NCBI GenBank assembly: GCA_037133935.1
Contig: JBAXNF010000001.1
Location: 1 to 55,967 of the forward strand
Direction: 5' to 3'
Origin: a bacterium
GTDB taxonomy: Bacteria; Actinomycetota; Acidimicrobiia; Acidimicrobiales; Ilumatobacteraceae
DNA: 55,967 bases
Part shown: positions 3,052 through 37,076 of the stretch, piece after piece
How positions within the stretch are numbered: position 1 is the stretch's first letter
Layout: each line of letters begins with the position of its first letter
Position numbers and translations under genes: made by a program
Notes under the pieces: model-generated
Databases searched by the model: none
The model's input: the letters and a program-made list of their open reading frames with translations, nothing else
What the model was told of the DNA's origin: nothing

Positions 3052-3188
3052 CGCTGCCTGGAGCCGCTCGGTAATGCCTTCGGCTACCGATTCGTGGGCG
3101 AGAATTCTGATGGGTTCACGATCGTTTGACATACCGAAAGTGTAGTTCAAACAGACGTGTCGCTTGGCAAATGTCGTAGCCTCTCCAT

Positions 3189-6361: not shown

Positions 6362-6386
6362 TGTTCTCCTTGGTCTAGTGGAGAGT

Positions 6387-16850: not shown

Positions 16851-18125
16851 TTAAAGGGTTTTGCTGGCGATGCAGGCGCCCAAGGTCACACCAGAGGTCA
16901 GACCGATTGTGAAGTGGATTCCGCCATACAGGCGCGAGATGCTCGCCTCTTTTGCAGCTTCGTTGAGCGACGCAAAAGTGCGGGGAGTTACTTCAAACTT
17001 TGCACGCGATTCTTGCGTGAGGCCGTAGCCCGGATCGGTAAATTTCCACTCTCCGAAATAGGAAGTTAAAACATCGGCAGCAGTTTTTGAAATGGTCGAA
17101 TGCCCCGATGGGTATTCCGGAAACGCAGGTGTTGGTAAGTACGACGACCACTGGGCGTCGCTACGTTGCAGCACCGTGATGGGTCGTTCCACCATGTATT
17201 TATATTTTTGGCCAAAGTTCACAATGAATGCATCGGATACCGCCATCGACATGTGGGCAACTACACGGATCAGTTTGACCGCGTCGATATTTTTTTCTAA
17301 GCCTGCGGCAAGTGCAATTTCCAACCAGTGCCCCGAAGGAGTGCCTGTGCGACCGCGACTATCGTCCCAGAAGCGAGCAATACTTTTTTGTTCTTCGGTG
17401 AGATTCTTTGCCACAGTAGCGACTTCTTCTGCAGCATCTTGGAAAGGTGACGATGTGTCTCCCGAAGTTGGAGGAACTGGAAGAGAACATTTTTTTGTGT
17501 CGACAAAAAATGATGTGAGTGTTCCCCAGCCTGGGTCAATAGCTGGCTGATATCCAGGTTGTGTAGGAACCCAGATGCCAGGACCCTTCACATCGGGTGC
17601 CATTATTTTTTTTGATTCTTCAAACCCATCGGTGTTCGTTCGTGCAACCACAGCTTCGGCGATGCTGATGCCGTAACTAATTGATTCATATTCAGCAGTG
17701 GCTGACAAGTTGACTGCGGCCATACGCAAAATACGATCGCGAAATTCACCGAATGTTGTACGTGCGGCAGCGACTAAGAAAATATTTCGAGCAACCGATG
17801 TTCCAGCAGCCAATGCAGCAACTACTAGGTCAATGTTTTCTGCACGTGCTGGCAACTCAGGCACACTGCTGAGTTTCTTAAACAACGAGTCATCACTTGG
17901 TGCCGATGCCAAAAACATTGCATAAGCAACGTTTGCATACAAGCGACTTGCTTTGGTTGGTGCCACGCGATCGCGAGCGACACGAACTGTAAGTTCTGTG
18001 AGAAATTCGCCAACCAACGCATTTGATGCGGCATTACTTGCCTTCGGTTGCGTTGAAGCGCTTGCCGCATGAGTTACAACAATTGAAGATAATAACGTGA
18101 GGATAACAATAAGTTTTTTCAGCAT
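16851..18125 (-). CDS. Secreted PAP2-superfamily / vanadium-dependent haloperoxidase-like protein
   Basis: Signal peptide MLKKLIVILTLLSSIVVTHAASA. It has the complete KxxxxxxRP (K307-P315), PSGH (339-342) and SRxxxxxH (397-404) motif set. Its start overlaps the upstream stop (ATGCTGA, 18119-18125). Confidence 0.75.
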   Translation of the reverse strand: MLKKLIVILTLLSSIVVTHAASASTQPKASNAASNALVGEFLTELTVRVARDRVAPTKASRLYANVAYAMFLASAPSDDSLFKKLSSVPELPARAENIDLVVAALAAGTSVARNIFLVAAARTTFGEFRDRILRMAAVNLSATAEYESISYGISIAEAVVARTNTDGFEESKKIMAPDVKGPGIWVPTQPGYQPAIDPGWGTLTSFFVDTKKCSLPVPPTSGDTSSPFQDAAEEVATVAKNLTEEQKSIARFWDDSRGRTGTPSGHWLEIALAAGLEKNIDAVKLIRVVAHMSMAVSDAFIVNFGQKYKYMVERPITVLQRSDAQWSSYLPTPAFPEYPSGHSTISKTAADVLTSYFGEWKFTDPGYGLTQESRAKFEVTPRTFASLNEAAKEASISRLYGGIHFTIGLTSGVTLGACIASKTL

Positions 18126-18631
18126 GACGGTGAAGCTACTTTCCCGTCAGGCAACTCTGTCTTACACAAAAGGGCCTGTTCAAATGAAGGGGCGTTCAAC
18201 GCGCCAGTGAAGATTGCATCGGTCAAGTAAGCCCGGCTGAAATTTGCATCCGCAATATTTGCCTCGCGAAAGTCTGCCCCAGTGAGCAATGCACCCGAAA
18301 AGTTTGCACCTTGCGCATTGGCCGAGGAAAGCGAGATGCGCACCAAAGTAGAACCCGTGAGATCTGCGCCCGTGAGATCGGCGCCCACAAGATTCGCCTG
18401 AGTTAAATCTGCCCCTACAAATGTGGTGTCCGACAAATTGGCATTACGTAGATCAATTCCGACCATTGTCATTCCTGATAAGTCTTGGCCACTGAGATCT
18501 GCACCAATGCACTCTGCTTCATTCTTTAAGGAGCACTGGCTGCCGACCGATGTGGATGACGAAGTACTACTGCCACCACAACCAGACAATGCGGCACAAG
18601 TCGCCAGTAATAACCACCAATATTTTTTCAT
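18119..18631 (-). CDS. Pentapeptide-repeat lipoprotein
   Basis: Lipobox ALSGC-GGSSTSS, then a continuous A(D/N)LxX run (GADLSGQDLSGMTMVGIDLRNANLSDTTFVGADLTQANLVGADLTGADLTG...). ATGA overlap with the upstream gene at 18628-18631. Confidence 0.85.
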   Translation of the reverse strand: MKKYWWLLLATCAALSGCGGSSTSSSTSVGSQCSLKNEAECIGADLSGQDLSGMTMVGIDLRNANLSDTTFVGADLTQANLVGADLTGADLTGSTLVRISLSSANAQGANFSGALLTGADFREANIADANFSRAYLTDAIFTGALNAPSFEQALLCKTELPDGKVASPSC

Positions 18632-20382
18632 TCTGGCTCAATAACATCTATTACTTGTTGCGGCTTGACATTGTTCAGAACCATTTCTTTGCCCGATAAA
18701 GGGAATGTCACTTTTACTTCATAAATATTTTTGGTGAGCTTCCCCAACCCAAAATGTGTCACACGACCATCATGAGTGAGAAATGAACCCGATGTTCCCA
18801 CATGGGCCAACTGTGGTTCTTCACCTTCAACAGACGTAACAGAAACAAGTGCACCCAACCCATCACGATTCGTCGTGACTCCCTGCACTTTGACACCCAG
18901 CCAAGCACCCACCGATGGAGTTTCGTTATGGAGAAATAGTGGCTTGTTCGCATCACGGGTAACAAACATGTCTTGTCGACCATCGTTGTCGGCGTCGAAC
19001 ACCACAACACCTTTTGAAGGTGTATTGATGTCTATGCCAGCTGCAATTGATTTTTCGGTGAATGCTCCGTTGCCGTTATCGACCCAAAAGCGAAATGGGT
19101 CAGAGGCGTAACACGCTGACGGCGGCATCCAAGTAATGTCCATTCCGTTTGCTGAAGCAATTTCTTTTTTTGCAGCATTTGTGGAGTCGAGAAAACTCAC
19201 CCCCCATCCCCAGAATCCGTTACGCACTCCAGCTTTGTCGGTGATGTCACTGAAAACTCTTTTACCGACATATTCGAAAAGTCTGTTTCCAGTCAAGATC
19301 AAATCTGATTCGTCATCACAATCAACTTTCGCACGTATGGAGGTCACCATCATTACTTGCTTCTGAGGATTACCAAGGAAACCGACAGCCAAGCCCATTC
19401 CGTTTTCTTCTTTGCCTAATTCCGCATCCACTGTGCCATTGGTGAAAGTACCGTCGCCGTTATTCCAGTAAAAACGCGTGGTGTTGAAGTCGGATGCAAT
19501 CATCAAATCAAGGTTGCCATCACCGTCAAAATCGGTAAAGCTCGAACTAAATGAGTACACCAGGTCAACTCGTGACTCAAGTTCAACACCTGCTTCTTTC
19601 GTGACATCAACGAAAACACCCGGTTTACCGGAGGCCCCCAGATTTTTAAATAAACGAGAATGAGACGGTATTACATACACCGATACATCGGCTGGTTGCC
19701 ACTCATTGGTGTGCATGTCGATCCAACCATCGTTGTTGTAGTCGCCAAAACTCACACCCATTCCTGAATGAGGGCGACCATTAATCATTGCTACACCGCG
19801 ATCAACTGCTTCTTCTGTGAACTTTCCTGTTCCGTCATTAATGAACATATATAACTGTTTTCCACCAAGTGAGGTAAGTACAACATCTTGATCGCCATCG
19901 TTGTCAATGTCGGCATAGCCAACACCGTTTGTAGATGAGGGCACCTTTTCGAATGCGGATCCCTTTGTGGCATCAACAAACGACACTTGGTCTTTTGTAC
20001 TGGTGTTGAGATACAGCAGTGGCGAGTTATAAATACGTGTCATCACGATGTCATCGAGCCCATCACCATTAACATCAACAGCTGCCGCTCCACCCGAAGA
20101 ACGCTCGGGATCACATTGCCTTGCAACATCTTTCGACACTGCAGGTGGAGTGACCTTAGGGAACTGGGCAACGATGAGCTTGGGGTCAAAAAGGCAATTC
20201 GGTTCCTTGATGCGTTGACCTTGAGCAATGGAAAAGCCAACTTGTTTCGACATCTCTACAAACTTTGGCAAGGCGTCTGGCACTGCACCGGTGCCGCCAC
20301 TACCTCCACACGAAAATGCGACAGATGCTAGCAACAATGTTGCTAGCACCTGACCACATCTTTTAAAGATGAGGGGACTCAT
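18628..20382 (-). CDS. FG-GAP/VCBS-repeat lipoprotein with a C-terminal ASPIC/UnbV-like region (CRTAC1-family-like)
   Basis: Lipobox VAFSC-GGSGG. Repeated Ca-binding-type loops: VDVNGDGLDDIV, DIDNDGDQDVV, DYNNDGWIDM, DFDGDGNLDL, FDADNDGRQDMF. C-terminal NRDGLGALVSV...GSFLTHDGRVTHFGLG. ATGA overlap with the giant gene's stop at 20379-20382. Confidence 0.8.
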   Translation of the reverse strand: MSPLIFKRCGQVLATLLLASVAFSCGGSGGTGAVPDALPKFVEMSKQVGFSIAQGQRIKEPNCLFDPKLIVAQFPKVTPPAVSKDVARQCDPERSSGGAAAVDVNGDGLDDIVMTRIYNSPLLYLNTSTKDQVSFVDATKGSAFEKVPSSTNGVGYADIDNDGDQDVVLTSLGGKQLYMFINDGTGKFTEEAVDRGVAMINGRPHSGMGVSFGDYNNDGWIDMHTNEWQPADVSVYVIPSHSRLFKNLGASGKPGVFVDVTKEAGVELESRVDLVYSFSSSFTDFDGDGNLDLMIASDFNTTRFYWNNGDGTFTNGTVDAELGKEENGMGLAVGFLGNPQKQVMMVTSIRAKVDCDDESDLILTGNRLFEYVGKRVFSDITDKAGVRNGFWGWGVSFLDSTNAAKKEIASANGMDITWMPPSACYASDPFRFWVDNGNGAFTEKSIAAGIDINTPSKGVVVFDADNDGRQDMFVTRDANKPLFLHNETPSVGAWLGVKVQGVTTNRDGLGALVSVTSVEGEEPQLAHVGTSGSFLTHDGRVTHFGLGKLTKNIYEVKVTFPLSGKEMVLNNVKPQQVIDVIEPE

Positions 20383-23300
20383 CGAATATTAAATCCGTAG
20401 CCCCACAGGTTGATCCATACGTTTCCTGGGTTGGTATTGAAGCCCATGCCCGCATTGATTGCGCGGCCCCAACCACCCCAACCACAACGGAAGTAACGGT
20501 CCCAACGGCCACCACCCCACCAGCACTCTGGCCAACTCCAGTCCATCCATGCAGATCCACCGATGTAGATGGAAATATATGGAGCCCAACTGGTGATAGT
20601 GATATATGAAGCGAAGTAAGTACCGAAGCTCAACTGTACGAAACCGGCGTTGATATAAGTACCCCAGCTCCATGGTCCGGCTGAGGCGGTGAACTGGAAT
20701 GAACCATCACCGTTGATGTAGCCGTACATACGGAACCAGACGCCTGCGAAGTTCAGCCACGCATCGATGATGAAGTAACTGTTGCCGCGGTAACGCTGAC
20801 CGTTATACCAGGCAACGTTGCCTACCTTGACCCAACCGCCGGTGCTGACACCTGGGAAGTTTACTCCAACATAAATTGATGTGTCGAAGGTGCCATCGGC
20901 ACCCACCCACATTGCACCGCCACCTCTAATGCCAGCAATGTCGATAGACACATCGGCGTACACACCAGCTTGACCTGGCTCGTTCGAGATCCGGAAGTTT
21001 CCGCGGCCACCGCCAATACCTGCAGCGCGTAGGTCTGCAGAACCAGTCATTGTGAAGCGAGTAGTTGATCCGTTCTTGTAGAAGTTACCGTTGAAACCTA
21101 CGCTTACGGCACCCATAACATTGATGGTGGAGCTCATGGCGAATTGCCATGTGTTGCCATTCTTCGAACCACTTACGCTGACCGCTGCGTTGAACGCAAC
21201 AAGGTTGAGGTTTCCGGATCCAGCGAAGGAGAAGTTGCCAGAGGTATCGAATGATCCACTGACGTAGACCTGCCCACCAACATCACCAGCACCAATTGAC
21301 CAGTTGGCATTGAAGTCGCCATACACAAGATTTTGTGCACGACCAATGACAACGTTTCCTGAACCGGGGAAACCTCCAAGGCTCATGGGAATGTTGGTTG
21401 CAGCGATGCGGAAGTCACCAGCTGCTGCCGCAACGTTTTGACCCGCACGGTTCAGGATGTTGACTCCAGAGCCGGCCTGCCATACGAACTGACCGCTGAC
21501 TTGTGCCGAGAACACGCCACCAACAGATGCTGTCGCCGTAATAGACACTTGGTTACCATTGAGGAAGCCCGATGCCGTGCCCAAGTTGTAGCCAGCCATT
21601 GCGGCAGAGGCACTGAAGTTGATAGTTGGCGTATTTCCCTTTGTATACGCGATGTCAAATTTACCGTTCAAAGTAACGACACCAGCAATGGTGCGTTGCA
21701 GTTGAAGGCTCGCGTTGAGGGACTGCAATTGGTAGTTCGACATTTGCATATTCAATGCAACTGTTGCGTCGGTACCAAGAACATTGAAACTGCCGCCAGC
21801 GACGATATTTGCATATCCCCTCAATGGCTTCAGGTTCAATGTCACTGTTGCATTACGTACTTCCAGGAATGACGGGACAATGACGAGGTTCGCAATAGAA
21901 CCCGTCATGTCGAGGTAAGGCCCGTCGGTGGTGTTAGCACCAGCCTTACCGCTCACCGAAACTTTCGTAGAGCCAATAGTGACGCCACCAGCAAACGAGA
22001 TGTAGTTATCGGTAGGTGAAACTTTCACACCCATCCGAGTTTCGTCAAGTTTCACTGGACCAACGTTGAAGGCTCCAATAGCCATGTCGGCTTCAAGCGA
22101 GAACGGGCTCGTGCCAATTTTCGCATTCACCGTCACGTTGGTGCCGAAAACTGTTCCTACGAAACCAGCTGCAACACCTGGGGCATACACCACGTTTCCA
22201 ATGGTGCAACCAAATGGCGCAATAGTGATGTTCATGTAAGTAGAGGTCAGAGCACCACCAGCAATGCTTGCAACCTTTGCAGAACCTGCAGCAATGGTTG
22301 TCTTATCTGCTTGCAACGTGCCGGCTTGCAACGAGAAGCACGGCTGAGTGATATCGATGTTTGCAGCCAAACGTACGGCTACTCCCGCTTCCATACCCAA
22401 TGGTGATCTCCAACTAGCTGGCAAGATTGCTGTTGCAGCAATACCCAAACTTGGCAGTGGCATTGGCGCGGTCAGAGTAATACCCATTTGAATTGCGGCT
22501 TCACTAAGCGTGAGGTCGTTTACTCCAAATGCGTTCTTCCATATGAATGGCCCGCCTGTTGCCTTATCTTTTCCAAGACTCAAGCTGAGGCTGATGCGGG
22601 TTGGCGCAACTGTTCCGCGAATTTCTAGTGGAACAGGAGTTTCATTAGACGCACCAGTCAACATTTCTGTTTGACCAATCAAGCTCATTGAAGGCGAAGG
22701 AGATCCACTTACTTCAAAACCAAGAGCTGTGAAGCGCATGGAGGATCCACCCGACTTGTACATGTACCAGTTGTCTGGAGTTGGCAACATGATTTGAATG
22801 GTTGGCAACTTGCCACCCGCTAGGTCTTTGAGCGGAATAGTGATGGGCACATTGGTCAAGTTCGGTTGCTTCAACATCTCGCGCAACCAACTTGGAACAT
22901 TGAAACTAGCAATGAGTACTGGTGTTGCCTTAACGATATTGAGCTTCCCTAAATCTTCAGCTCCCGCCAAGACAACGCCCGTTGCATCGTACGACGACAA
23001 TGCGAAGGAAGCATTCGACAACGTCATCCCCGGTACGGGAGTCCAATCTTTCATTCCTGCCGTAATGAGAACACCCTTCGAGCTAAACGTAGCGCCCATG
23101 CTCAAGGTAGTTCCCAGCAAATTGGAACTGCCCGACACCCCAGCTGTTACACCACCGGCTTTCGTATAAGCAAGCGAGAAACCTGGCTTAGTAATGGTGA
23201 CACCAGACGCAATGTTGATATCTGCAGTGAAGGTTGCGCTCAGGGTTGCTTCGCCCTTGTTGAAACTGCCCTTCACTTCAGTTGGCCCCGTGAATCCGTT

Positions 23301-26300
23301 TCCAAGATCAACAAAGAGTTTCCCTTGCGCTCCAAAACCAATGTCACAAGGTGTGCCAATGTTGCAGGTCGCGTTAATGAGAACACCTGGTTCAGTGATT
23401 TTCAGGCCAGGGAACGGCACATAGTCAGTGCTGGACTTAAAGCCAATACTCATTGTTTTTACATTGTCCTTGCGGACCACGGTTCCCGTCACACCCTTCA
23501 ACGGAATGGAGAAGCCACTAAATGGCGTCCATGATGCCGTTGAGTTTTCAGGTGTTGCAACCACAAATTCGTAATTCGTTGCACTTGTGTAGTTAAAGGT
23601 AAATGGCATCAGTAGTGCACCAGTATCGGTAGCTACCGACAGTTGCCCACTACCCTTCACCGGAGCAGTCGTTGTACCACCCATGCGGATATCTAAACGA
23701 TCAATCATGACGCCCTTGATTACCTCAACAGGCGAGATGACTTTTGCAACAAGGGCATACTCCCAAGGCTTTGAACTTGCAGGCCGTGAAATGGATCCGT
23801 CTATCTCAACTTTGTCTGTCTTAAATGCTGCCGTCATGCTCAATGCACCCGTGGCAAAGGTCCATGAACCAGAAATAGACACGGGTCCAAATGTTGCAGT
23901 GCCCGTTACTTCTTTGATCATCTCTGGCATCGGAAGTGAGAAGCTCAGACGTGGCACGTTGAGTCCAAGATTAATTGAAGGCAAGTTGAGGTTCGGCAAA
24001 CTTGGCGACCAGTTAATGGAAGGGATGCTGATTGATGGAGCCTTCAACATCCAAGCAAACTTGCCAATATCGAAGTCGTAGTCAAAGCCTGGCAATTTGA
24101 ACTTCGGAAATACACATTCCATCAAAACACCAGCACCGAAGGTCACTTCGCAAGTTGTTTTTGTACCAAACAGTTCTACTGTTCCCGACAATTTCGCCGT
24201 GACAGAAGGTTGAGCTGTCTTTGTTGGTGTTGTAGCTGCAGATGTTCCGGTTGCAGGTGCTTTCACTGCAGGAGGAACCGTGAGCACGATTGTTGGTGAT
24301 GTCAACTTGACATCTGCCGAGAAGACCATGTCTGAGAACTTCGCAGTGAAGACGAAAACACCGGCGCTGTCGAGGTTTGCTTCAACTGCAATACTGCTCA
24401 ATGAGTCGATACCAATATCGAACCCGAGAGTTCCTTTCACGTTGAATGTCGTTATGCACTTGGCACCTGTTGCACAATTAAATGCAGCGTTCGCAGTCAC
24501 TTTTTGTATGGTGATTCCAGATACTGGCTTCCAAACAACTGCCGACGACATATCCATCAGCAAACTGGTTCCCGTTGCATTACGAGTGAAAGAACCATTG
24601 ATTTCGCCAAGAACGAGCGGGTCACCACCACCCACTTCAAACGATGAACTGGTTGCCCCAACCGACAGCGTCACCGCATAGTCAGTTGAAGATTTGATAG
24701 CAAAAGTTCCCTTGACCGTGAGCACGGTTCCACCTGGAACGGTGATGCCTACAGCTCCGCTTCCACTAAGTGATGCCTTGCCACCGGGAACTGTGTTTCC
24801 AAAAGTGAACGCGAAGTCTGAGAGTTGAACAACACTATTCAGCTCAATTGGACGCTTTACTTTTCCAGTGAGATTGTACAAATAGCTCTTTGAAAGATCG
24901 GTCTTATCGCCACCAGCTTTATTACTGATGGTTCCGCTCAATTCAAAGACAGGGTCAGAGAACAACGCAGCAAGAGAGAACTCGCCACTTGAGAAGTTCA
25001 CTTCACCTTGAACAGCCAAGTCACTCACTTCTCCACTAGCGCCCGTGAACTCTTTCAACGCAGATGGCATCGCTATTGCAACTATTAAGCGAGGCACTTT
25101 GGCCGAAAGTGGCACCGACTTGAAGGTAGGCAACGAAGGCACCTTTGGCGTGAAGCTAGAGAGATCACGTAATGACCACACAAGTTGACCTGCTTTTAAG
25201 ACAGGCCCATCGGCACCAAAAGCTGCCAAATCTTTTACATCAGCGCTGAGCAACACGTTTTCTTTACTAAACGCTGCAGAGGCACTTACTTTTGTACCAA
25301 ATACGTTCATCGAGCCCGTCATGGTGATGGACGTTGTTTGGTCTGCGGCACCCACCTTTGTGGCCTCGATGGCAAGTGAAGCTTCCGAGAGTTCTAAGCC
25401 TGCTGCTACTTCAATTGAAGCAACTTTTGCTGTGAAAGAAGCCGACTTGGCAGCCGTGTCGAAACTACCTTCAAGGCTTCCCGAACCGACTGTAGAACCT
25501 AAGGTAATTTCTGCCGTTGAACTGAGTTTCATTGCCAACGCACACGCTGCATCGGCAGCGCATTTGGCAGTGACCTCAATTGATGGCGACTTGATTTCAA
25601 GACCTGTCATTGGAGTTGAGTTACCTCCTACAACCTTGATGGCAATATCGCGTGCACCATTTACATTTGCATAAGAACCCGATGCGCTCTTCAAAGGAAT
25701 GACCACATCTTTTGCTGCAGTCCATGAACTGTTAGCTGTAGTTGCCTTCACTGTCAAAGAATGATTCTTTGTATCGGTGTACGACAAGTCGGCGGTGAGT
25801 TCAAGTGCTGAAGGTGCCGTACCAATGGTGACGGTTCCCGAACCAGTAACAATTCCTTCTTCGCTACGTGATGCTGTTAATCCATTTAATACAACGCCAG
25901 TTGTCAGAGTTACTGGGCCTTCTAGCGAACCAGAGAGAGAAACCTTTGCGGCAGTTGTCGGAGAAGTCTTTGTGACCTTGCCAGCAAAGTTCACTACTGT
26001 GCCGAAGAGGTCGACGGCATCGGTCATTGAACCATCAAGAGTGAAGGTTCCATTTGAAGCGATGGCACCATAGACACGAGCCGCTGGTGTTTTACCGTTT
26101 GCTGTAGTACCTGTTGCATTTGCATCGAGCGAAACTGATTTCACACCAGCAGCATCGACGCTAAAGCGCAGTGCTGCACTTGAGGTGTAGCCCGAAGGCA
26201 ACTTCAAGAACGGCATTGCAGCAGCAACAACTTCACCTTCAAATGCGCCAACTGAAGCACCAGCACCTGTGAATGGAATGAATAGACCAACTGCATCGGT

Positions 26301-29300
26301 TGCCGCAATAGCGAACTGTGGTGAACCCCAGTCGGCTGGGCCGGTGAATCGTGCAGTACGGATGGTGAGGCCATAACCCGATACCGAACCTGACGCATCA
26401 GAAACGGTGAGGTAGTTGCCAAGTGAGAAACCGGCACCCGAGAAGCTCACCTTTGAGCTTGCGAGACAAGTGCTTGAAGCCACAGTGAACTTCGTGAGGT
26501 CAAGTCCACCAATGCCAATGGCATCAATAATTGACTGCACACTGCTCAAAGTTTTGTTTGAAGCAGCTTCAACGAAGTTGCACAACGCAGCAGGAGCGCC
26601 ACCTGGCTTCAATTCAAGAGCAACTTCAGCAGTGGCTTTCGCACCAGTGCCGTCGGTTACTACAACTTGCAATACAGCATCGCCGAGTGCGCCAGTAGCT
26701 GCAACAGTTACTGCTGCGGCTGCGGCGTTGTTCAACGTAAGAGCCGTACCTGAAACTTGCGCCCAGGCGTAGCTCAATGTTCCGCTACCTGAACCAGCAG
26801 CTGTGAGTGTGAATGCTTGTGAGGTATCAACTACAACTGGGCCATCGATGCCAGTAATTGTTGCCGATACCACTGGGGCTCCACCTGAACCAATAGTGAC
26901 CGTAATGAAGTCTGTTGACTTCACACCACGTGAGTCGGTTGCTTCAACACGTAATGAAACGGTGACGTTCGCGGCGGGTGCAGTGAAGCTCAAGGTTGCA
27001 GCGTTTGTAGTTGCCGAAGCAATGACCGATGGTGTAGGGCCTGAAGCCTGTGACCATGCGTAAGTGATTGCACCAACACCTGTAGCTGAAGCCGTGAGTG
27101 AAACTGCTGCACTTTGTGCAACGGTGACTGACTTCGCGCCAAAGACGTTGCCGTTTACTGTTACACCAGTAGCGGTGAGTGGGCTATACGTTGCATCGCC
27201 AGTTCCAGTTGTTGGAGCAGTTGCACGAATAACTCCACGTGAAGAAACACTCTGCTGTGGAACACGGCGCAAAACGGATGAACCAGCACCGCTTGAAGTT
27301 TTGCCGGTTGGGCCTTCAACGGTTGGCAGAGGAATAACTACGACAGAAGCACGAGCTGTTGATGAAGAACCAGCTTCAGTTGCCTTCACTTCAAACAAGA
27401 GTGTGGTGTCTGCAGTTACAACAGGAGCCGAGAACGTTGCAGATGGGCCATTAGAAGCCTTGTTGTCTGCCCATTTCACAGCTGGAGTCACAGACTTACA
27501 TTCTCCACCAGAAGCTTTTACATCGGCTTCAGTAGTGCAGAGTTGCTTCCACACGTAAGCAGCTCCATCGCCATTGCCTTCAGTTGTAAGTAGAACGGTA
27601 GAAGCAACACGATTGCCAATTGCATCAACAATTTGATCAACTACAGAATCTGGGCCTTTAACGGTGAACGCCAGCGCTGGGCGCAGATCTACCGAAAGGT
27701 TTGAACCGCGGCCGGCAGCAATATTGCGTGAGGTGCCATAAAGTGAAGCAGCCTGCAAGTTGAGAGTCTTTGAAGACTTACTTGTTGATTCGTAGCTCAA
27801 GCTCAATGCTGGCGTTTCTGCACCAGCCTTCAATGCTGGAGTGCGCGAGCAAATGGTGAAACCAGAAGCAAGCGCCGTACCCAATCGAGCGCACTTCCAT
27901 GACTCACCCTTGACACCAGTGATGCGGCCATCTTTGATACCAGGCACAACAACAAATTGAGCTTTTGCATCGGTGTCACCACTGTTGCGCAGACTCAAAG
28001 TTGCCACTGCGGAACCACCCGGACGAGGGCCAGCTGGAGCCAAGAACGATGGAACCAAATCGGTTGTATCTTCGGAAATTGCAACGGTCATGCCAAAACG
28101 AGCTATTGGCGCTGCAGGAATGCCGAGCATCGTTACATACACAGGCCATTCAGGTTTTCCTACTTTTGCAGAATTAGCCATTTTGACTGTGAGGTTCAAC
28201 ACTGGAGTTGACTTGTCGGGCGCAATTGCAGAAGCGAGTTTAATTTCGCAACGCACAGCGGGGCCAGCCTTCTTTGTTGCCACAGTTGTTACAGGAGCAA
28301 CCGAAGATGCTGTTTCAGCCTTTGCTGCATCGAGCGGTGAAGCGATTTGAGGAATATTTCCGGTTCCTGTTACACAGACCCACTTCCCTGCAGCCGATGT
28401 ATTAATTTTCTGGCTGTCGAGTGATGCCGAGTAACCAGCCGATTTGCCAAAAGCTGGTCCGCTGAAAATTGCAGTGTCGTCGACAAACTGCTCAAACCGT
28501 ACGATCTCACCAGCAGCTAGCGCCTTGCTTCCCAAGTTTTTTGTACTGAATGAATAATTCTGGCTTTGCCCAATACGGATCTTTGTTGCAGATCCATCGG
28601 ATACAACTTTCAATGCACCCTTTTCATCGGAACGGCTCAGTTCAACACCTGGCATCGGAGCCGCTTGAGGCTGAATGACCAAGGTGTGTGCGACGCGGTT
28701 TGCATCTTTGTACTTTTCAGCTTCATTATCTGCAGAAATTGCAGCAATGACTTGTGCCGTACCTGATTCAGTGTCTTCGGTTGCACCAATGGTAAACCCA
28801 ACCGTTTCCGGTGTTTCAGATTCAATTTCTGGCTTCACACAATCTTGCGCAGTTGCGCCTTCACCAGCAGATTCTTCTGGGGTAGTTGAGGTACAGGTCC
28901 AGCCTTCAGCATCGGATGCCAAGCCTTTGAACACAAGACCTTTGCGCATGCTGAGTTTGATGTGGGCATTTTCTGCCGGGCCGTATACCGAACGCACTAA
29001 CGCATCGACTACGACCGAGCCTGGAGGAGAGATACTGCTTTCCTCATCGCGCGGAGCAAGACGAATGGTTACGTCTGGCTCTGGAACTTTACGAACGTCA
29101 ATTGACATTGTCTGGTTTGCTTCAATTGGTGTTGCATCAAGCGCAGTAGTTGAGTTTGCAGAAAGAACCCAGCTTTGTGGCTTTTCCGCAATTGGTGCGG
29201 CTTTTCCAACACGAGCATCAAAGATAATTGGATCGGTATAAGTACCGGGCTTGATATCGGCACCAGTACGGGTACACGACTTGGGTGCAGTTTCGCTATC

Positions 29301-30419
29301 GCACTTCCAGCCTTCGCCACTAATTTTTACCTTTGTGAGGGCCAAGAAAGGGGGAACAACATTTGAGAATTTAATAGAGCCTGATTGTGTTTCAGTACCT
29401 GTTGGCAAGAAACGCAATTCCATATGGAATGGACCACCTGGGTAAACAGGTCCTTTGATTTTTGATTCAATGAAAACGCCTGCAATTCCCTGGCCATTCA
29501 GACCCAATGCCGACTTCACGCGGCGAGTTGAACCAGCCTGAACACCAGAATCTCGTTCAAGACCATTCAACTGCACGACTGCTTCGTTGTTTTTGGTATT
29601 GATGTCGCTTGCTGTATTGGCAACAGCTGTGAGGTGAGTTACCTGCCTAACCACAGCGTTAAATGCAGCAAGATCTCCACCAGTTGATGCGGCTTTAATT
29701 TTGTCGAGCAAGTCTGCAGGCGGAACAGGAATTACTGCATTACTTGCAATATCAAAACGAAGGTCGGCTTGCGCTGTTGCGCCACTTGCCAACAATGCAT
29801 TCACAATTCCCTTGTCTGATTTTTCAACTAGTACGCACTGTAAGCCTTTGCAATCCCAACCGCGGTCGCCAACAACAGAGTCGGCGCCGAGTACAGGACT
29901 TGCATCGAGCAATTTGACAAATGTCGGCATTTCCTGCAATGTGAAAGATACAGGTGACTTTTCACCTGCAACTGCATTACCAATGTTTGTGACATAGACA
30001 ATTCCCATATACACAAAACCAGGGATTGCTGGCCCAACAAGGTTTGCGGCAGCCGAAAGGTCGGCACCACTCTTGTTCTCACCGGCTTCGCCAGCAGGGA
30101 ATTCTTTTGTATCGGGTTTTGCCTGCTCGGTAGGTGGCTGGTCAATACCATTTTTATCTACTGGACCGTCATAGAGCGGCAAAACACTGGTGTCGGTGAG
30201 TCCAGGAACTGAAGTAGTTGTAGTTCCAGCATCAGCAGCAACAGTTGTTGTTGTTTCATCCGCCGCCGTAGTTGCCGTTGTTGCTGGCGTCATTGACGTG
30301 GTGGTCGAAGAGTCGATAGGTGCGCTGGCGTTAGCCGGCATTACTGAGGTTGCTCCGACTGCAAAAACAGTGAGGAGAACTGTTGCATTTCGCGTAATTA
30401 CTCGGGCGTTGATTTTCAT
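20379..30419 (-). CDS. Giant secreted protein (~3,346 aa): Thr-rich linker, DUF11-like and PKD-like modules, then ~2,000 aa of unassigned beta-rich sequence
   Basis: Uninterrupted 10-kb ORF. The ATG at 30417-30419 forms an ATGA overlap with the upstream stop and has AGGA 8 nt upstream; the track start at 30428 is the alternative. SPase-I type signal (LLTVFAVGATSVMPANA-SAP). No lipobox, no LPXTG, no C-terminal TM segment. Confidence 0.9.
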   Translation of the reverse strand: MKINARVITRNATVLLTVFAVGATSVMPANASAPIDSSTTTSMTPATTATTAADETTTTVAADAGTTTTSVPGLTDTSVLPLYDGPVDKNGIDQPPTEQAKPDTKEFPAGEAGENKSGADLSAAANLVGPAIPGFVYMGIVYVTNIGNAVAGEKSPVSFTLQEMPTFVKLLDASPVLGADSVVGDRGWDCKGLQCVLVEKSDKGIVNALLASGATAQADLRFDIASNAVIPVPPADLLDKIKAASTGGDLAAFNAVVRQVTHLTAVANTASDINTKNNEAVVQLNGLERDSGVQAGSTRRVKSALGLNGQGIAGVFIESKIKGPVYPGGPFHMELRFLPTGTETQSGSIKFSNVVPPFLALTKVKISGEGWKCDSETAPKSCTRTGADIKPGTYTDPIIFDARVGKAAPIAEKPQSWVLSANSTTALDATPIEANQTMSIDVRKVPEPDVTIRLAPRDEESSISPPGSVVVDALVRSVYGPAENAHIKLSMRKGLVFKGLASDAEGWTCTSTTPEESAGEGATAQDCVKPEIESETPETVGFTIGATEDTESGTAQVIAAISADNEAEKYKDANRVAHTLVIQPQAAPMPGVELSRSDEKGALKVVSDGSATKIRIGQSQNYSFSTKNLGSKALAAGEIVRFEQFVDDTAIFSGPAFGKSAGYSASLDSQKINTSAAGKWVCVTGTGNIPQIASPLDAAKAETASSVAPVTTVATKKAGPAVRCEIKLASAIAPDKSTPVLNLTVKMANSAKVGKPEWPVYVTMLGIPAAPIARFGMTVAISEDTTDLVPSFLAPAGPRPGGSAVATLSLRNSGDTDAKAQFVVVPGIKDGRITGVKGESWKCARLGTALASGFTICSRTPALKAGAETPALSLSYESTSKSSKTLNLQAASLYGTSRNIAAGRGSNLSVDLRPALAFTVKGPDSVVDQIVDAIGNRVASTVLLTTEGNGDGAAYVWKQLCTTEADVKASGGECKSVTPAVKWADNKASNGPSATFSAPVVTADTTLLFEVKATEAGSSSTARASVVVIPLPTVEGPTGKTSSGAGSSVLRRVPQQSVSSRGVIRATAPTTGTGDATYSPLTATGVTVNGNVFGAKSVTVAQSAAVSLTASATGVGAITYAWSQASGPTPSVIASATTNAATLSFTAPAANVTVSLRVEATDSRGVKSTDFITVTIGSGGAPVVSATITGIDGPVVVDTSQAFTLTAAGSGSGTLSYAWAQVSGTALTLNNAAAAAVTVAATGALGDAVLQVVVTDGTGAKATAEVALELKPGGAPAALCNFVEAASNKTLSSVQSIIDAIGIGGLDLTKFTVASSTCLASSKVSFSGAGFSLGNYLTVSDASGSVSGYGLTIRTARFTGPADWGSPQFAIAATDAVGLFIPFTGAGASVGAFEGEVVAAAMPFLKLPSGYTSSAALRFSVDAAGVKSVSLDANATGTTANGKTPAARVYGAIASNGTFTLDGSMTDAVDLFGTVVNFAGKVTKTSPTTAAKVSLSGSLEGPVTLTTGVVLNGLTASRSEEGIVTGSGTVTIGTAPSALELTADLSYTDTKNHSLTVKATTANSSWTAAKDVVIPLKSASGSYANVNGARDIAIKVVGGNSTPMTGLEIKSPSIEVTAKCAADAACALAMKLSSTAEITLGSTVGSGSLEGSFDTAAKSASFTAKVASIEVAAGLELSEASLAIEATKVGAADQTTSITMTGSMNVFGTKVSASAAFSKENVLLSADVKDLAAFGADGPVLKAGQLVWSLRDLSSFTPKVPSLPTFKSVPLSAKVPRLIVAIAMPSALKEFTGASGEVSDLAVQGEVNFSSGEFSLAALFSDPVFELSGTISNKAGGDKTDLSKSYLYNLTGKVKRPIELNSVVQLSDFAFTFGNTVPGGKASLSGSGAVGITVPGGTVLTVKGTFAIKSSTDYAVTLSVGATSSSFEVGGGDPLVLGEINGSFTRNATGTSLLMDMSSAVVWKPVSGITIQKVTANAAFNCATGAKCITTFNVKGTLGFDIGIDSLSSIAVEANLDSAGVFVFTAKFSDMVFSADVKLTSPTIVLTVPPAVKAPATGTSAATTPTKTAQPSVTAKLSGTVELFGTKTTCEVTFGAGVLMECVFPKFKLPGFDYDFDIGKFAWMLKAPSISIPSINWSPSLPNLNLPSINLGLNVPRLSFSLPMPEMIKEVTGTATFGPVSISGSWTFATGALSMTAAFKTDKVEIDGSISRPASSKPWEYALVAKVISPVEVIKGVMIDRLDIRMGGTTTAPVKGSGQLSVATDTGALLMPFTFNYTSATNYEFVVATPENSTASWTPFSGFSIPLKGVTGTVVRKDNVKTMSIGFKSSTDYVPFPGLKITEPGVLINATCNIGTPCDIGFGAQGKLFVDLGNGFTGPTEVKGSFNKGEATLSATFTADINIASGVTITKPGFSLAYTKAGGVTAGVSGSSNLLGTTLSMGATFSSKGVLITAGMKDWTPVPGMTLSNASFALSSYDATGVVLAGAEDLGKLNIVKATPVLIASFNVPSWLREMLKQPNLTNVPITIPLKDLAGGKLPTIQIMLPTPDNWYMYKSGGSSMRFTALGFEVSGSPSPSMSLIGQTEMLTGASNETPVPLEIRGTVAPTRISLSLSLGKDKATGGPFIWKNAFGVNDLTLSEAAIQMGITLTAPMPLPSLGIAATAILPASWRSPLGMEAGVAVRLAANIDITQPCFSLQAGTLQADKTTIAAGSAKVASIAGGALTSTYMNITIAPFGCTIGNVVYAPGVAAGFVGTVFGTNVTVNAKIGTSPFSLEADMAIGAFNVGPVKLDETRMGVKVSPTDNYISFAGGVTIGSTKVSVSGKAGANTTDGPYLDMTGSIANLVIVPSFLEVRNATVTLNLKPLRGYANIVAGGSFNVLGTDATVALNMQMSNYQLQSLNASLQLQRTIAGVVTLNGKFDIAYTKGNTPTINFSASAAMAGYNLGTASGFLNGNQVSITATASVGGVFSAQVSGQFVWQAGSGVNILNRAGQNVAAAAGDFRIAATNIPMSLGGFPGSGNVVIGRAQNLVYGDFNANWSIGAGDVGGQVYVSGSFDTSGNFSFAGSGNLNLVAFNAAVSVSGSKNGNTWQFAMSSTINVMGAVSVGFNGNFYKNGSTTRFTMTGSADLRAAGIGGGRGNFRISNEPGQAGVYADVSIDIAGIRGGGAMWVGADGTFDTSIYVGVNFPGVSTGGWVKVGNVAWYNGQRYRGNSYFIIDAWLNFAGVWFRMYGYINGDGSFQFTASAGPWSWGTYINAGFVQLSFGTYFASYITITSWAPYISIYIGGSAWMDWSWPECWWGGGRWDRYFRCGWGGWGRAINAGMGFNTNPGNVWINLWGYGFNIR
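20382..20846 (-). other. Trp/Gly/Tyr-rich C-terminal module of the giant protein
   Basis: The last ~155 aa contain 17 Trp by my count (…GPWSWGTYINAGF…SAWMDWSWPECWWGGGRWDRYFRCGWGGWGRAINAGMGFNTNPGNVWINLWGYGFNIR). The rest of the protein is Trp-poor. Confidence 0.6.
22179..26561 (-). repeat. Cryptic ~350-380-aa super-repeats (3-4 copies) in the unassigned core of the giant protein
   Basis: Recurring landmarks at near-constant spacing. (V/L)FGTK at aa 1710 and 2087, with LLGTT at 2438. (K/N)VPRLxxxxxMPxxxKExTG at aa 1777 and 2157. CX5C at aa 1623-1629 (CAADAAC), 1985-1991 (CATGAKC) and 2355-2361 (CNIGTPC). Numbering is from the track ORF. Confidence 0.6.
26604..27668 (-). repeat. Three PKD/Ig-like modules
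   Basis: Recurrent Y-x-W-x-Q...G......(F/T)-x-AP......L-x-V-x-(A/V)-T-D pattern: AAYVWKQL...ATFSAP...LLFEVKATE; ITYAWSQASGPTP...LSFTAPAANVTVSLRVEATDSRG; LSYAWAQVSGTAL...AVLQVVVTDGTG. Confidence 0.55.
27669..30056 (-). repeat. Five ~160-aa DUF11-like (conserved repeat domain) modules
   Basis: Each module ends in a (G/S/K)W-x-C...C signature: GWDCKGLQC, GWKCDSETAPKSC, GWTCTSTT...DC, KWVCVTG...RC, SWKCARLG...IC. Each signature is preceded by a VTNxGN / LRNSG-type strand. Confidence 0.6.
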
Positions 30420-31471
30420 GATGCACATCCTGTTGAAGCGAAACCGGTAAGAGTTCGGGTAGTTCCTGAAGTATTAAAAACGGGGCGATACGCAGGTGTT
30501 GCTACAGCAACACGGTCAAGTGCCGCACGGGCCCTAACGAGAGCTGCTGTATCTGCATTTGCACCCGTGAGTGCAGTTGCAATTCCATCGATGAGTTGGC
30601 TTGGCCCGCCATTACGCAAGGCCGAGATGCAGTCGCTTGTTGACCACAGTGTGTTTTTCCACTTCAGTTCAGCAACTTTCAACGAGACGTTCTTGCAAGT
30701 AGAGGCGGTGGTGCCACTGCACGACAACATAAGGTCGCGGATGGCATTTCCTGTTGCAGCAGAATCGTTGGTCTGATCACCAAGAAGGAACTCGACTCCC
30801 CAACCATTTCCAAGGAAGGCTCCCACTTGTGGAGCAGTTGGGTCGAGGCCACGAATAGACTTAATTCCTGAACCCTTCAATGTTTGCGAAGTGACTTCTT
30901 TAATGATGCTCTTTGCCTTAGTGGTAACGAACGCACAGTTATCGCACACCAATGAACCAGACGACGTGGTGCTGATAGTCCAACGCAAAGTCATTGGAGT
31001 AGCCGTGCCTACCCACTCGGCTTTTGTAACAGTGAGCACACCAGCTGAGTCGGTGTTCCATGTTGCACTTACTGCGCGAGCAGCGTTGCTGGTGAGTGAT
31101 GCCTCTGCAGGAAGAGCAGGACGCGGCGCACCTAGTGGGTTGTCGCTCGCTAAATACGTTGCTTGATAGTTGCCCGGATCAGCAACTACTGCAGCGGCAG
31201 GAACAGGAACAAGCGTTGTTGCGGGCGCTGCAGTTGTTGCAGTTGTTGCTGGTGCCGCAGAAGTCGTTGTAGCAGCCGCAACTGTTGTTGGTGTCTCGCC
31301 AGCAGAACCTTTCGATGGAAGCGTTCCTGAAGCAAGAGTGGTTGTCACCAATGCCGCATTCTTTACGCGAGTCGTATCGGGCCCAGATGAATCTGATTTG
31401 GAACTTCCACACGAGGCAACTGCTACCAGAGCAATTGCCAAGATGGCACATTTAGTAACACGAGATCTCAT
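30416..31471 (-). CDS. Lipoprotein of unknown function with a Thr/Ala-rich linker and a Cys-containing globular part (351 aa)
   Basis: The ATG at 31469-31471 forms an ATGA overlap with the upstream stop and has GGAG 7 nt upstream. It gives MRSRVTKCAILAIALVAVASC-GSSKSDSS. I recognised no domain. Confidence 0.75.
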   Translation of the reverse strand: MRSRVTKCAILAIALVAVASCGSSKSDSSGPDTTRVKNAALVTTTLASGTLPSKGSAGETPTTVAAATTTSAAPATTATTAAPATTLVPVPAAAVVADPGNYQATYLASDNPLGAPRPALPAEASLTSNAARAVSATWNTDSAGVLTVTKAEWVGTATPMTLRWTISTTSSGSLVCDNCAFVTTKAKSIIKEVTSQTLKGSGIKSIRGLDPTAPQVGAFLGNGWGVEFLLGDQTNDSAATGNAIRDLMLSCSGTTASTCKNVSLKVAELKWKNTLWSTSDCISALRNGGPSQLIDGIATALTGANADTAALVRARAALDRVAVATPAYRPVFNTSGTTRTLTGFASTGCAS

Positions 31472-31938
31472 TTGGTTGCTCCACATTTTTCAGAAACGAA
31501 TTTGTTAATAGATTCAGTTGCAGCATCAATGTCGGGTGTTGCATATTTCGCTACTACTGCATCGAACGAGTCAAGAGATGGGTCGCTCTTGAGCGAGTCG
31601 GCCATGGCTTGTGCAGCTGCAGCAACTTTGTCGGCAGCAGATTTAATTTCAGTTGGTGCTTTGCTTGCGGTATCGCTCAAAGCTGCAGCAAGTGCATTGA
31701 TCTTTGTGGTGATTGCAGCAGCATCATCGGTTGACTCAATTTGAGGAAGCTTCGAATTGTTTGCATCTGCAGAGCTGCAGAACTCTTCATACGACACTTC
31801 ACCAGTTGCCGTGGAATTTTCCGAAGCGACCGACGTGTCTTGAGTCGACGAGTCTTGAGACGACGAGTCGCTTCCACCACAAGCCCCTAAGACAAGCAAC
31901 GCCAATAAAGGCAAACTTCGTTTGATAGTGCTTCGCAT
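31468..31938 (-). CDS. Small, probably helical lipoprotein of unknown function (156 aa); first gene of the surface operon
   Basis: MRSTIKRSLPLLALLVLGAC-GGSDSSSQDSS lipobox. AGGGGA lies 7 nt upstream of the ATG. The Ala/Lys/Asp-rich sequence with two distal Cys matches no domain I recognise. Confidence 0.7.
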   Translation of the reverse strand: MRSTIKRSLPLLALLVLGACGGSDSSSQDSSTQDTSVASENSTATGEVSYEEFCSSADANNSKLPQIESTDDAAAITTKINALAAALSDTASKAPTEIKSAADKVAAAAQAMADSLKSDPSLDSFDAVVAKYATPDIDAATESINKFVSEKCGATK

Positions 31939-31973
31939 GAAAGTTCCCCTAGATGATCGCGTTGACTATTTAT

Positions 31974-32002
31974 AAACTAGTTGACAGTCGGCGCCTCTTC
32001 AA
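31974..32002 (-). promoter_or_regulatory. Candidate sigma-70-type promoter of the surface operon
   Basis: Minus strand reads TTGAAG (32002-31997), a 17-nt spacer, then TAGTTT (31979-31974), followed by an A/T-rich TATAAAT. It lies about 35 nt upstream of the ATG at 31938. Sequence pattern only. Confidence 0.3.
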
Positions 32003-32091
32003 GTCGGGTCTAGAAGGTTTCTTCTGACGTTCACCTATTCCCTGACCCAGGGGGTCATCCCTGCAGACCGTCGATACACCTTGATATATAA

Positions 32092-32131
32092 GGAGAGCAA
32101 AGTTGATACATCTAAAGCACCTTTACTCTCC
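32092..32131 (-). terminator. Candidate intrinsic terminator downstream of gatB
   Basis: The arms GGAGAGCAAAG (32092-32102) and CTTTACTCTCC (32121-32131) pair at 10 of 11 positions. On the minus-strand RNA the hairpin is followed by UUAUAUAU. A second perfect partner, CTTTGCTC (32132-39), offers an alternative pairing. Confidence 0.35.
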
Positions 32132-32242
32132 CTTTGCTCATTGAGGTTCCCCGACGGTAACCACAATGTTGACCTTGCTGGCTCATTTTTTGATGACCCC
32201 ATCGACCGAAGAGCTGCCGATGTAGAAGGACCCGAATTGTTG

Positions 32243-35398: not shown

Positions 35399-35409
35399 AA
35401 GAGTGAATG

Positions 35410-37072: not shown

Positions 37073-37076
37073 TGAG

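Follow-up and report, generated by a model that had tools for sequence, protein, structure and literature searches.

What do six consecutive genes for exported proteins do in one bacterium, when one of them encodes 3,346 amino acids (aa), and do their products belong to a single machine? The question is raised by a 55,967-nucleotide (nt) stretch of DNA from a freshwater Acidimicrobiales bacterium (contig JBAXNF010000001.1; the whole stretch is called the window here), in which six genes, g1 to g6, lie on the minus strand at 16,851-31,938. A preliminary description, made from the sequence of the window, had taken them for an operon whose products are the co-translated, stoichiometric parts of one complex around an orphan giant protein, g3. 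The reading that we favour, with a confidence slightly better than even, is that the region at 4.6-32 kb is a hypervariable cell-surface island with two modules. One of them, g1-g2-g3, would supply an exported giant and its membrane-side partners, while the other, g4-g5-g6, would be an autonomous, membrane-tethered extracytoplasmic enzyme unit. The genes and the promoter-like element in front of them are as follows.

31974..32002, minus strand: promoter-like element 5' of g1 (TTGAAG, 17 nt, TAGTTT), conserved in the gatB-g1 spacer alignment
31468..31938, minus strand: g1, predicted 156-aa lipoprotein (alignment; no family match)
30416..31471, minus strand: g2, predicted 351-aa lipoprotein (alignment, AlphaFold2 (AF2) model)
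20379..30419, minus strand: g3, predicted 3,346-aa secreted giant (Pfam, self-BLAST, profile search, AF2)
18628..20382, minus strand: g4, predicted 584-aa CRTAC1-like FG-GAP/ASPIC beta-propeller lipoprotein (Pfam, PDB 9ETN)
18119..18631, minus strand: g5, predicted 170-aa pentapeptide-repeat lipoprotein (Pfam)
16851..18125, minus strand: g6, predicted 424-aa secreted vanadium-haloperoxidase-like enzyme of the PAP2 superfamily (Pfam, PDB 4CIT)

Two modules in a run of exported proteins

The table of open reading frames (ORFs) lists the six on the minus strand, one after another from g1 to g6, and start and stop codons overlap at all five junctions: ATGA at 31468-31471 (g1/g2), 30416-30419 (g2/g3), 20379-20382 (g3/g4) and 18628-18631 (g4/g5), and ATGCTGA at 18119-18125 (g5/g6). 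The coordinates and the overlaps had thus been described correctly, as had the export of all six products and the lipid anchoring of four. Lipoboxes, which like the signal peptides were read by eye, are present in g1 (LGAC), g2 (VASC), g4 (AFSC) and g5 (LSGC), and AxA-type signal peptides on g3 and g6. However, the run of exported proteins does not stop at 16851 and goes on into g7 (lipobox FSAC) and g8 (LSAC). The N-terminal signal, lipobox and invariant cysteine of bacterial lipoproteins are found in g1, g2, g4, g5, g7 and g8, the lipobox cysteine being invariant across both the g1 and the g2 alignment. All six are predicted lipoproteins, and lgt is nearby at 36218-37153.

Lying on one strand, with stop and start codons that overlap, the six genes have the layout of an operon. 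Overlap is frequent in this compact genome: of the window's 18 other junctions between genes on one strand, about 7-8 have it too (~40%). Five consecutive overlaps are therefore a modest excess over background, with a chance of about 1% if the junctions are independent. In the relatives L001, L005 and L006 (L and P numbers denote the loci and proteins compared here), short gaps replace the overlaps at g3/g4 and g4/g5, which are therefore not conserved. A consensus scan of 15.5-33 kb gave promoter-like and terminator-like matches at or below shuffled expectation, the Rfam scan of the whole window matched no family, and the cluster has no DNA-level repeats of note. The TTGAAG-17-TAGTTT element was not called by the consensus promoter scan. 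Both of its motifs are kept across the gatB-g1 spacers of five aligned relatives, and it is the putative promoter of g1.

Gene neighbourhoods in relatives bear directly on the question. A total of 52 loci was gathered, the window proteins were mapped onto them by tblastn, and 36 non-redundant g3 genes remained at 99.5% nucleotide identity. Wherever g3 is at least 48% identical and the sequence upstream can be seen, the giant is preceded by g2 and g2 by g1, and the ATGA overlap of g2 and g3 is almost always present. Where the downstream flank is visible, g4-g5-g6 follow the giant in 20 non-redundant loci and in two truncated ones; loci with g4-g6 and a visible upstream flank are gatB-adjacent, and g7 is usually the next gene. 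The co-linearity noticed earlier therefore recurs in relatives, down to about 48% g3 identity, but the co-occurrence is not strict. Seven non-redundant g1-g2-g3 triads have no g4-g6 alongside (L002, L004, L007/L029, L041, L031, L032 and the upstream paralogue in L008) and are paralogous copies. In L014, from a distant organism of 65% GC, a g4-like lipoprotein gene with a lipobox, its product 35% identical over the full length, is directly followed by the gene of a lipoprotein, also with a lipobox, in which pentapeptide repeats and VCPO are fused, with 40% identity to g5 and 35% to g6. Genes for RNase HII and a peptidase S8 adjoin the pair, and a giant is absent. Because triads occur without g4-g6, and g4 with a g5::g6 fusion occurs without a giant, the cluster consists, in genetic terms, of two modules, g1-g2-g3 and g4-g5-g6. 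The distant giants, in Ilumatobacter (L017) and in L018, L019/L048, L049 and L050, adjoin neither g2 nor g4-g6.

These distributions also bear on the proposal of a single co-translated, stoichiometric complex outside the cytoplasm, made of all six products, in which the lipoproteins tether and assemble the giant and g4-g6 are integral parts. The five overlaps, the export signals on every product, the six-gene order in about 20 non-redundant loci and the internal promoter-like and terminator-like matches that do not exceed shuffled expectation are all consistent with it. Of course, gatB and g7 are as syntenic as the six genes, and for this reason synteny alone would be no proof of a complex; nor do overlapping genes demand a 1:1 output of a 3,346-aa and a 170-aa protein. 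Together with the background of overlapping junctions, the gaps in three relatives, the solitary triads and the giant-free L014, this makes a single six-part complex rather improbable.

Related genomes have two or three giant triads each, a large share of a small genome. For example, L039 and L041 are on one contig (OUVC01000092), and L003 with L007, as well as L004 with L008, each belong to one metagenome-assembled genome (MAG). Such additional triads are seen on OUVC01000092, at L008:2-2476 and in L031, L032 and L040; some stand in tandem with the main locus, one paralogue lying directly upstream of g1 and another a few kb past g7.

The giant protein, its lipoproteins and its variation

The first two genes of the triad fit their earlier description as a helical lipoprotein of 156 aa and a cysteine-containing lipoprotein of 351 aa with a Thr/Ala linker. 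In g1, an acidic linker of Ser and Thr joins the lipoprotein signal to a domain of about 100 aa, Ala-rich and probably helical, which is bracketed by two invariant cysteines (C54 and C152) and has a conserved DP(T/S)L..F motif. No homologue was found in Pfam, NCBIfam or PDB, and the g1 profile matched only designed coiled coils and signal peptides in the PDB. The gene lies upstream of g2 in all related loci with a visible upstream flank. In g2, a disordered Thr/Ala linker of about 95 aa leads to a globular domain of about 230 aa with six invariant cysteines. The AF2 model of g2 is confident in its core (residues 120-260), with a mean predicted local distance difference test (pLDDT) score of 60.7 overall and values below 50 over residues 6-116, the signal peptide and linker. 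There was no Pfam family for g2, the PDB profile search was empty, and Foldseek gave no match at E<1. The 127 homologues of g2 are all at least 52% identical, none of them is annotated, and a giant gene (>3,200 aa) lies directly 3' of g2 in every neighbourhood examined.

The giant itself begins with a signal peptide and a Thr-rich linker, followed by about 900 aa without a Pfam match, which by analogy with relatives may be Ig-like. PKD repeats, three homologous units (U1-U3) and a C-terminal beta-meander of about 800 aa come next. The features within g3 are as follows.

26592..27455, minus strand: PKD-type Ig repeats, g3 aa ~989-1276 (K319L-like PKD; the sole Pfam/NCBIfam match in g3)
22770..26072, minus strand: three tandem homologous units of ~365 aa, U1-U3, g3 aa ~1450-2550 (chunked self-BLAST, hhalign)
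22815..25715, minus strand: type-B recombination cassette, g3 aa ~1,567-2,535, gene nt ~4,700-7,600 (sliding-window identity)
20382..23381, minus strand: family-defining C-terminal region, g3 aa 2347-3346 (AF2, profile search)

The units lie at about aa 1450-1810 (U1), 1810-2177 (U2) and 2177-2550 (U3), with pairwise hhalign probabilities of 99.1-99.6%; the last 800 aa are unrelated to them in sequence. Pfam places its K319L-like PKD match at about aa 1098-1276 of g3, and a relaxed Pfam scan of six g3 segments found nothing besides PKD, leaving about 90% of the protein without a Pfam model. For aa 2347-3346, the AF2 model, made from 13 aligned sequences, has a mean pLDDT of 78.8 and values of 80-93 over most of residues 300-900. 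It is all-beta, with about 65 antiparallel strands, mostly of 6-21 residues and mostly joined by short turns, and in most strands a hydrophobic face (V, I, L, F, A) lies opposite a small-polar one (S, T, N, G). The C-terminus is therefore predicted to be a very long amphipathic beta-meander, an assignment of fold class that holds equally for a belt, groove, taco, barrel or sandwich.

Searches with the model point the same way. Against the PDB, the best Foldseek match was apoB-100 (E=4.7e-8, probability 1.0), followed by LptD, with Deinococcus SlpA, SprA and pilus ushers further down, all at a template-modelling (TM) score of at most 0.22. Viral structures gave only low-TM beta-meander matches, and the profile of the region found nothing meaningful among PDB sequences. 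Neither a TM score above 0.5 nor sequence or profile homology, either of which would place g3 among AsmA/TamB-like or apoB-type proteins, was found (best TM 0.22). One could consider the giant as a machine for binding lipids or hydrophobic surfaces, with a sheet of about 1,900 aa like the apoB-100 beta-belt or an AsmA/TamB groove, docked by g1 and g2. The apoB-100 and LptD matches, the two-faced strands and the two dedicated lipoprotein genes upstream would suit such a machine. However, the matches at these TM scores are to a fold class only, Pfam and PDB searches show no sequence relation to lipid-transfer families, and amphipathic strands equally fit an ordinary two-layer beta-sandwich. The extreme allelic variation and cassette swapping described below would also be less surprising in an exposed antigen than in a conserved conduit for lipid, and we give the lipid machine only a slim chance.

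How would such a protein be held at the cell? As the preliminary description had it, g3 carries a signal peptidase I type signal (AxA) and no anchor motif: neither an LPXTG-like motif nor a second hydrophobic helix or C-terminal transmembrane segment is present. Sortase anchoring was rejected for want of the LPXTG motif, and no autotransporter, intimin or other barrel model was matched in Pfam, including the relaxed segment scan. In the two-module island that we favour, g3 would be exported via Sec, its N-terminal half forming a stalk of the Thr-rich linker, Ig-like and PKD domains and its C-terminal ~1,900 aa (the three ~365-aa units and the terminal domain) a very long amphipathic antiparallel beta-sheet. 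With no covalent anchor on the giant, g1 and g2, lipoproteins on long flexible tethers whose translation would be coupled to that of g3, would act as its dedicated membrane-side docking or assembly partners.

The giant had been called an orphan, and here the earlier account has to be corrected. Homology searches used the C-terminal 1,000 aa as query. A word-indexed search returned 15 proteins, all from freshwater metagenomes or Acidimicrobiales/Actinomycetota MAGs, and an HMM profile built from these was run against 1.84 billion cluster representatives, of which it matched 520 at E<=1e-3 and 215 at E<=1e-30. By this profile, the C-terminal ~1,100 aa define a family of at least 520 clusters. 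Most members have 2,000-3,500 aa, and in full-length proteins the profile usually matches close to the C-terminus. One cluster holds YM304_04720 of Ilumatobacter coccineus YM16-304 (WP_041297919.1, 3,470 aa). In four family members scanned, K319L-like PKD was found in three, DUF11 in two, Fn3 in one, and weak CARDB and A2M in one, all N-terminal to the unannotated C-terminal region.

Comparison among close relatives shows that the giant is a mosaic. Sliding-window identity was computed between the g3 of our window and seven full-length relatives. The orthologues L003 and L008 are 93-94% identical to it over aa 600-1550 and 2560-3100, but only about 50% over aa 1620-2480. The giants of the paralogous loci L004 and L007, which lack g4-g6, show the reverse in the flanks and are 95-97% identical in the centre at the aa level. 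The other type of centre, type A, is 86-95% identical among L003, L005, L006 and L008. From 1,806 informative sites, the breakpoints fall at gene nt 4690-4726 and 7599-7618, or positions 25,730-25,694 and 22,821-22,802 of the window. The same A-B-A mosaic occurs in the full-length contigs L020 and L021 and the proteins P0001 and P0257, and in L026 it stands on different, L005-like flanks with a third g4-g6 allele. Because the A-B-A junctions recur in independent sequences, the central cassette of about 2.9 kb has been exchanged by real recombination. An assembly chimera was rejected as the source of the mosaic, identical junctions being found in independent Joint Genome Institute contigs and in proteins with different flanks.

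Variation is not limited to the cassette and is also strong at both ends of g3, over its first 600 and last 250 aa. Across L005, L006, L025 and L028, gatB is 98-99% and g7 87-90% identical, compared to 67-80% for g3, 64% for g4, 42% for g5 and 64% for g6. A fixed position, near-identical flanks, deeply divergent alleles and homologous recombination are all found here, and the locus bears the signature of a replacement flexible genomic island. Clusters for giant proteins are recognised islands of this kind, and a link to phage recognition has been proposed for them (PMC3458243, PMC4033161). The island evolves by homologous recombination: the central beta-unit cassette of g3 is swapped among allelic or paralogous giants, and between flanks that hardly differ, the g3 termini and g4-g6 are present as deeply divergent alleles. 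Exposed structures under selection would be expected to show this pattern, with phages or grazers as the presumed agents.

A variable C-terminal tip might also suggest a polymorphic-toxin or contact-dependent competition locus, with the tip of g3 as effector and the downstream genes as accessory or immunity genes. Indeed, the last ~250 aa are 39-72% identical against 62-90% for the preceding aa 2560-3100, and g4-g6 vary in step with the tip. However, the N-terminus and centre of g3 are as variable as the tip, which in the AF2 model continues the beta-meander, and neither that model nor the relaxed Pfam scan reveals a toxin-like domain. The g4-g6 products are enzymes or scaffolds that are exported and independently distributed, and no small immunity-type ORF lies behind g3. 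With neither toxin-like domain nor immunity-type ORF to support it, the toxin reading was rejected as very unlikely.

The g4-g5-g6 unit

The products of the second module are what they had been taken for: an FG-GAP/ASPIC lipoprotein, a pentapeptide-repeat lipoprotein and a secreted PAP2/vanadium-haloperoxidase-like enzyme. In g4, Pfam finds FG-GAP_3 (114 bits), FG-GAP and a C-terminal UnbV_ASPIC domain (37.4 bits), the combination of CRTAC1/ASPIC proteins, and human CRTAC1 (PDB 9ETN) is matched at E=1.8e-11. In g5, Pentapeptide (PF00805) scores 102.3 bits over three stretches with tandem A(D/N)LXX repeats, while the NCBIfam model penta_Alr5209 stays under its cut-off. In g6, PAP2 scores 39.3 bits (cut-off 27.2) and VCPO_2nd 26.5 bits, just under its cut-off of 27. 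Residues 30-417 of g6 align with 34-437 of the vanadium iodoperoxidase of Zobellia galactanivorans (4CIT, E=7.6e-46), including the vanadate-binding motifs K-x6-RP (QKYKYMVERP), (P/T)SGHS (PSGHS) and SR-x5-H (SRLYGGIH), and both domain and motif evidence place it in the vanadium-dependent haloperoxidase (VHPO)/PAP2 superfamily. It has more than 1,000 homologues, named vanadium-dependent haloperoxidase by NCBI, with a precomputed PF22778 on every homologue listed. Since PAP2 phosphatases share the active-site residues, the sequence cannot choose between haloperoxidase and phosphatase, and g6 may be either.

Fusions tie g5 to g6. Among the 120 g6 homologues listed, 22 are pentapeptide-VCPO fusions (P0164-P0180, P0182 and the distant P0220 and P0231), and g5::g6 fusions are also found in the loci L001, L014 and L016, in L001 and L016 at the same position of the locus. 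Fusion in so many relatives argues that g5 and g6 may interact physically. In the two-module reading, the pentapeptide beta-helix lipoprotein g5 would hold g6 at the membrane, with the CRTAC1-like propeller lipoprotein g4 alongside, and the unit would carry out peroxide-dependent halide oxidation, or alternatively a phosphatase reaction, at the cell surface.

Further afield, the distant g6 homologue P0223 carries a fused lactonase-type beta-propeller of seven blades (PF10282), so that a propeller and a VHPO-like enzyme are linked a second time, independently. In Anaerolineae-type contigs, a g6 homologue stands alone among glycosyltransferase genes. In L015 and L052, a VCPO-like homologue lies directly 3' of Mannosyl_trans2 (PF04188), with glycosyltransferases of families GT4 and GT9 a few genes downstream, which suggests a role in envelope glycan or polyprenyl-phosphate metabolism for that branch of the g6 family.

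The two modules could also be separate and yet cooperate. Here g4-g6 would oxidatively modify or cross-link g3, g7 or the wall by way of hypohalous acid and would serve the giant paralogues in trans. All full loci have the unit between g3 and g7, genomes with extra triads retain one g4-g6 copy, and in L040 g4 stands after a paralogous giant. Moreover, the motifs by which a proven iodoperoxidase binds vanadate or phosphate are conserved in g6. Brown algae are known to cross-link their extracellular matrix by means of haloperoxidases, as animals do with peroxidasin. However, L014 has the unit with no giant nearby, distant g6 homologues are found among glycosyltransferase genes, no Tyr- or Met-rich target motif was identified, fresh water is low in halide, and PAP2-type active sites equally fit phosphatases. 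Cooperation of this kind is unlikely on balance, although it deserves some weight.

Several points weigh against the two-module island that we favour. The six-gene order is kept far enough down in g3 identity to allow a functional link beyond inherited synteny, and L014 is the sole independent case of the second module apart from a giant. The paralogous giant of L040 keeps g4 alone, followed by the next g1. All three identifiable genomes with a paralogous triad also hold locus A with one g4-g6 copy, and because of this pairing an action of g4-g6 in trans on all giants is possible. On the structural side, the g2 model is poor outside its core, and the prediction for g3 does not give the overall shape of the beta-sheet. 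Finally, the binding of g1 and g2 to g3, the surface exposure and the activity of g6 are things that we infer.

A bolder proposal combines parts of these explanations. The triad may be a so far unrecognised envelope structure of monoderm Acidimicrobiia: a lipoprotein-docked amphipathic sheet of the apoB-belt or AsmA-groove class that coats or bridges a hydrophobic surface or carries lipid, is reprogrammed by cassette exchange and is serviced by the pentapeptide-haloperoxidase unit. The sheet would be roughly tens of nanometres long, with about 130 strands by extrapolation from the model. We regard this as a long shot.

Flanking genes and known systems

Beyond g6, the exported run continues with two more lipoprotein genes.

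6387..16730, minus strand: g7, predicted giant lipoprotein of ~3,447 aa (RCC1 propellers, PA14/GLEYA, Big_2, Lcl_C; conserved synteny)
4613..6361, minus strand: g8, predicted lipoprotein of ~582 aa (a domain like the N-terminal domain of g7, and a long acidic tail)

The g7 gene comes 51-120 nt after g6, its most likely start being the ATG at 16730, with a lipoprotein signal, and g8 starts 25 nt past the g7 stop, behind a Shine-Dalgarno-like AAGGAG motif. In L004, a g8-like protein of 355 aa is encoded after the paralogous triad.

On the 5' side of the cluster lie gatB, gatA and lgt (36218-37153). The gap between the gatA and enoyl-CoA hydratase ORFs (35205-35410, 204 nt) corresponds to gatC (100 aa) in L011 and L012. 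Because the hydrolase-lgt-enoyl-CoA hydratase-gatCAB block is conserved housekeeping synteny, the nearby lgt would not be specific to the lipoprotein cluster.

Between gatB and g1, relatives have a gene for a thioredoxin/TlpA-like lipoprotein of about 175 aa, of which only a remnant of about 200 nt is left in the spacer of the window (~32040-32240). Intact copies are found at L003:1912-2430 and L006:~2015-2530 and in L011, L012, L024, L026 and L035. In its motif, FWFWAPY-[TGA]-(G/S)TCN, an in-frame TGA takes the place of the first cysteine of CxxC and is kept in all eight loci examined; a CCTCGGTCGAGG hairpin lies about 20 nt further 3'. From these features the gene looks like one for a selenocysteine (UxxC) redox lipoprotein.

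Why does the island matter? About 27 kb of the 56-kb window are spent on eight exported proteins. The host belongs to the Acidimicrobiales, presumably to the acIV-type lineage. Such Acidimicrobiales are abundant freshwater bacterioplankton, and to our knowledge almost nothing is known of their cell surface. The analysis defines a large, so far uncharacterised family of proteins whose predicted fold is unusual, and since I. coccineus is cultivable and carries a member, experiments are possible. The cassette exchange is a clean natural example of how an exposed protein may be diversified in streamlined planktonic bacteria. From the recurrent pentapeptide-haloperoxidase fusion, with a CRTAC1-like propeller next to it, one would predict that the proteins are physical partners. 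Functional leads of this kind are rare for pentapeptide-repeat proteins outside the cytoplasm and for the bacterial CRTAC1/ASPIC proteins, for which we know of no function. In the literature, no paper was found that ties these Acidimicrobiia giants, or the VHPO/pentapeptide/FG-GAP trio, to a function.

Each part of the island can be set beside a known system. Human CRTAC1 and g4 both have FG-GAP Ca-binding blades and UnbV_ASPIC, with g4 being a predicted bacterial lipoprotein. The Zobellia enzyme 4CIT and bacterial VHPOs such as NapH1 share the three motifs with g6, and 4CIT also a full-length alignment; unlike them, g6 is paired with a pentapeptide lipoprotein (fused to it in relatives) and adjoins a CRTAC1-like propeller, and its activity is predicted. 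The apoB-100 beta-belt, LptD/AsmA-type structures, SlpA and SprA have long runs of amphipathic antiparallel beta-hairpins, as the C-terminus of g3 is predicted to have, but with no sequence similarity and TM scores of at most 0.22 the resemblance is one of fold class. Cultured Ilumatobacter are described as Gram-positive, and since they belong to the lineage, no outer membrane is expected in the host.

The closest cultivated counterpart of the giant is I. coccineus YM304_04720, annotated as a "PKD domain-containing protein." It matches profile positions 9-1138 at its own C-terminus (E=2e-104), is similar in size, has a weak precomputed K319L-like PKD and is overlapped at its start by a small gene. 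It is a distant relative, however, with no g2 or g4-g6 alongside, and the upstream gene encodes a transmembrane-anchored acidic protein of 162 aa with no detectable similarity to g1. Both small proteins have a membrane anchor, an acidic linker and a helical domain between two cysteines; despite this like architecture, homology is not claimed (hhalign probability 0.14%). On the 1.06-Mb contig of another distant giant (L018:18627-20765), CW_binding_2 proteins are encoded downstream; such repeats occur in wall-anchored proteins of Firmicutes.

Neisseria pilE/pilS and Borrelia vlsE undergo antigenic variation by gene conversion from paralogous cassettes. As in those systems, an internal segment of a putative surface gene is replaced in g3 from a paralogous copy, with sharp breakpoints in conserved sequence. 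The donor of the g3 cassette, however, is a complete, apparently expressed paralogue rather than a silent cassette, the exchange is one between variants of a population, and no dedicated recombination signal was found.

The nearest parallel to the locus as a whole is with the GI3 and GI10 islands of Alteromonas macleodii, where a very large surface protein with Ig domains is likewise encoded at one fixed place in the chromosome, between near-identical flanks, with divergent alleles and homologous recombination, and for which the link to phage recognition was proposed (PMC3458243, PMC4033161). Here, unlike in Alteromonas, the giant always comes with two dedicated lipoprotein genes and is mostly an unannotated, predicted beta-meander, its internal 2.9-kb cassette is common with a paralogous gene of related genomes, and the host is a monoderm actinobacterium. 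Giant surface proteins that vary within replacement islands are thus of an already known kind, and no new principle comes with this one. What is new is the protein family with the fold predicted for it, the obligate pair of lipoproteins, a cassette inside the gene that is common with a paralogue, and the recurrent FG-GAP/pentapeptide/VHPO unit.

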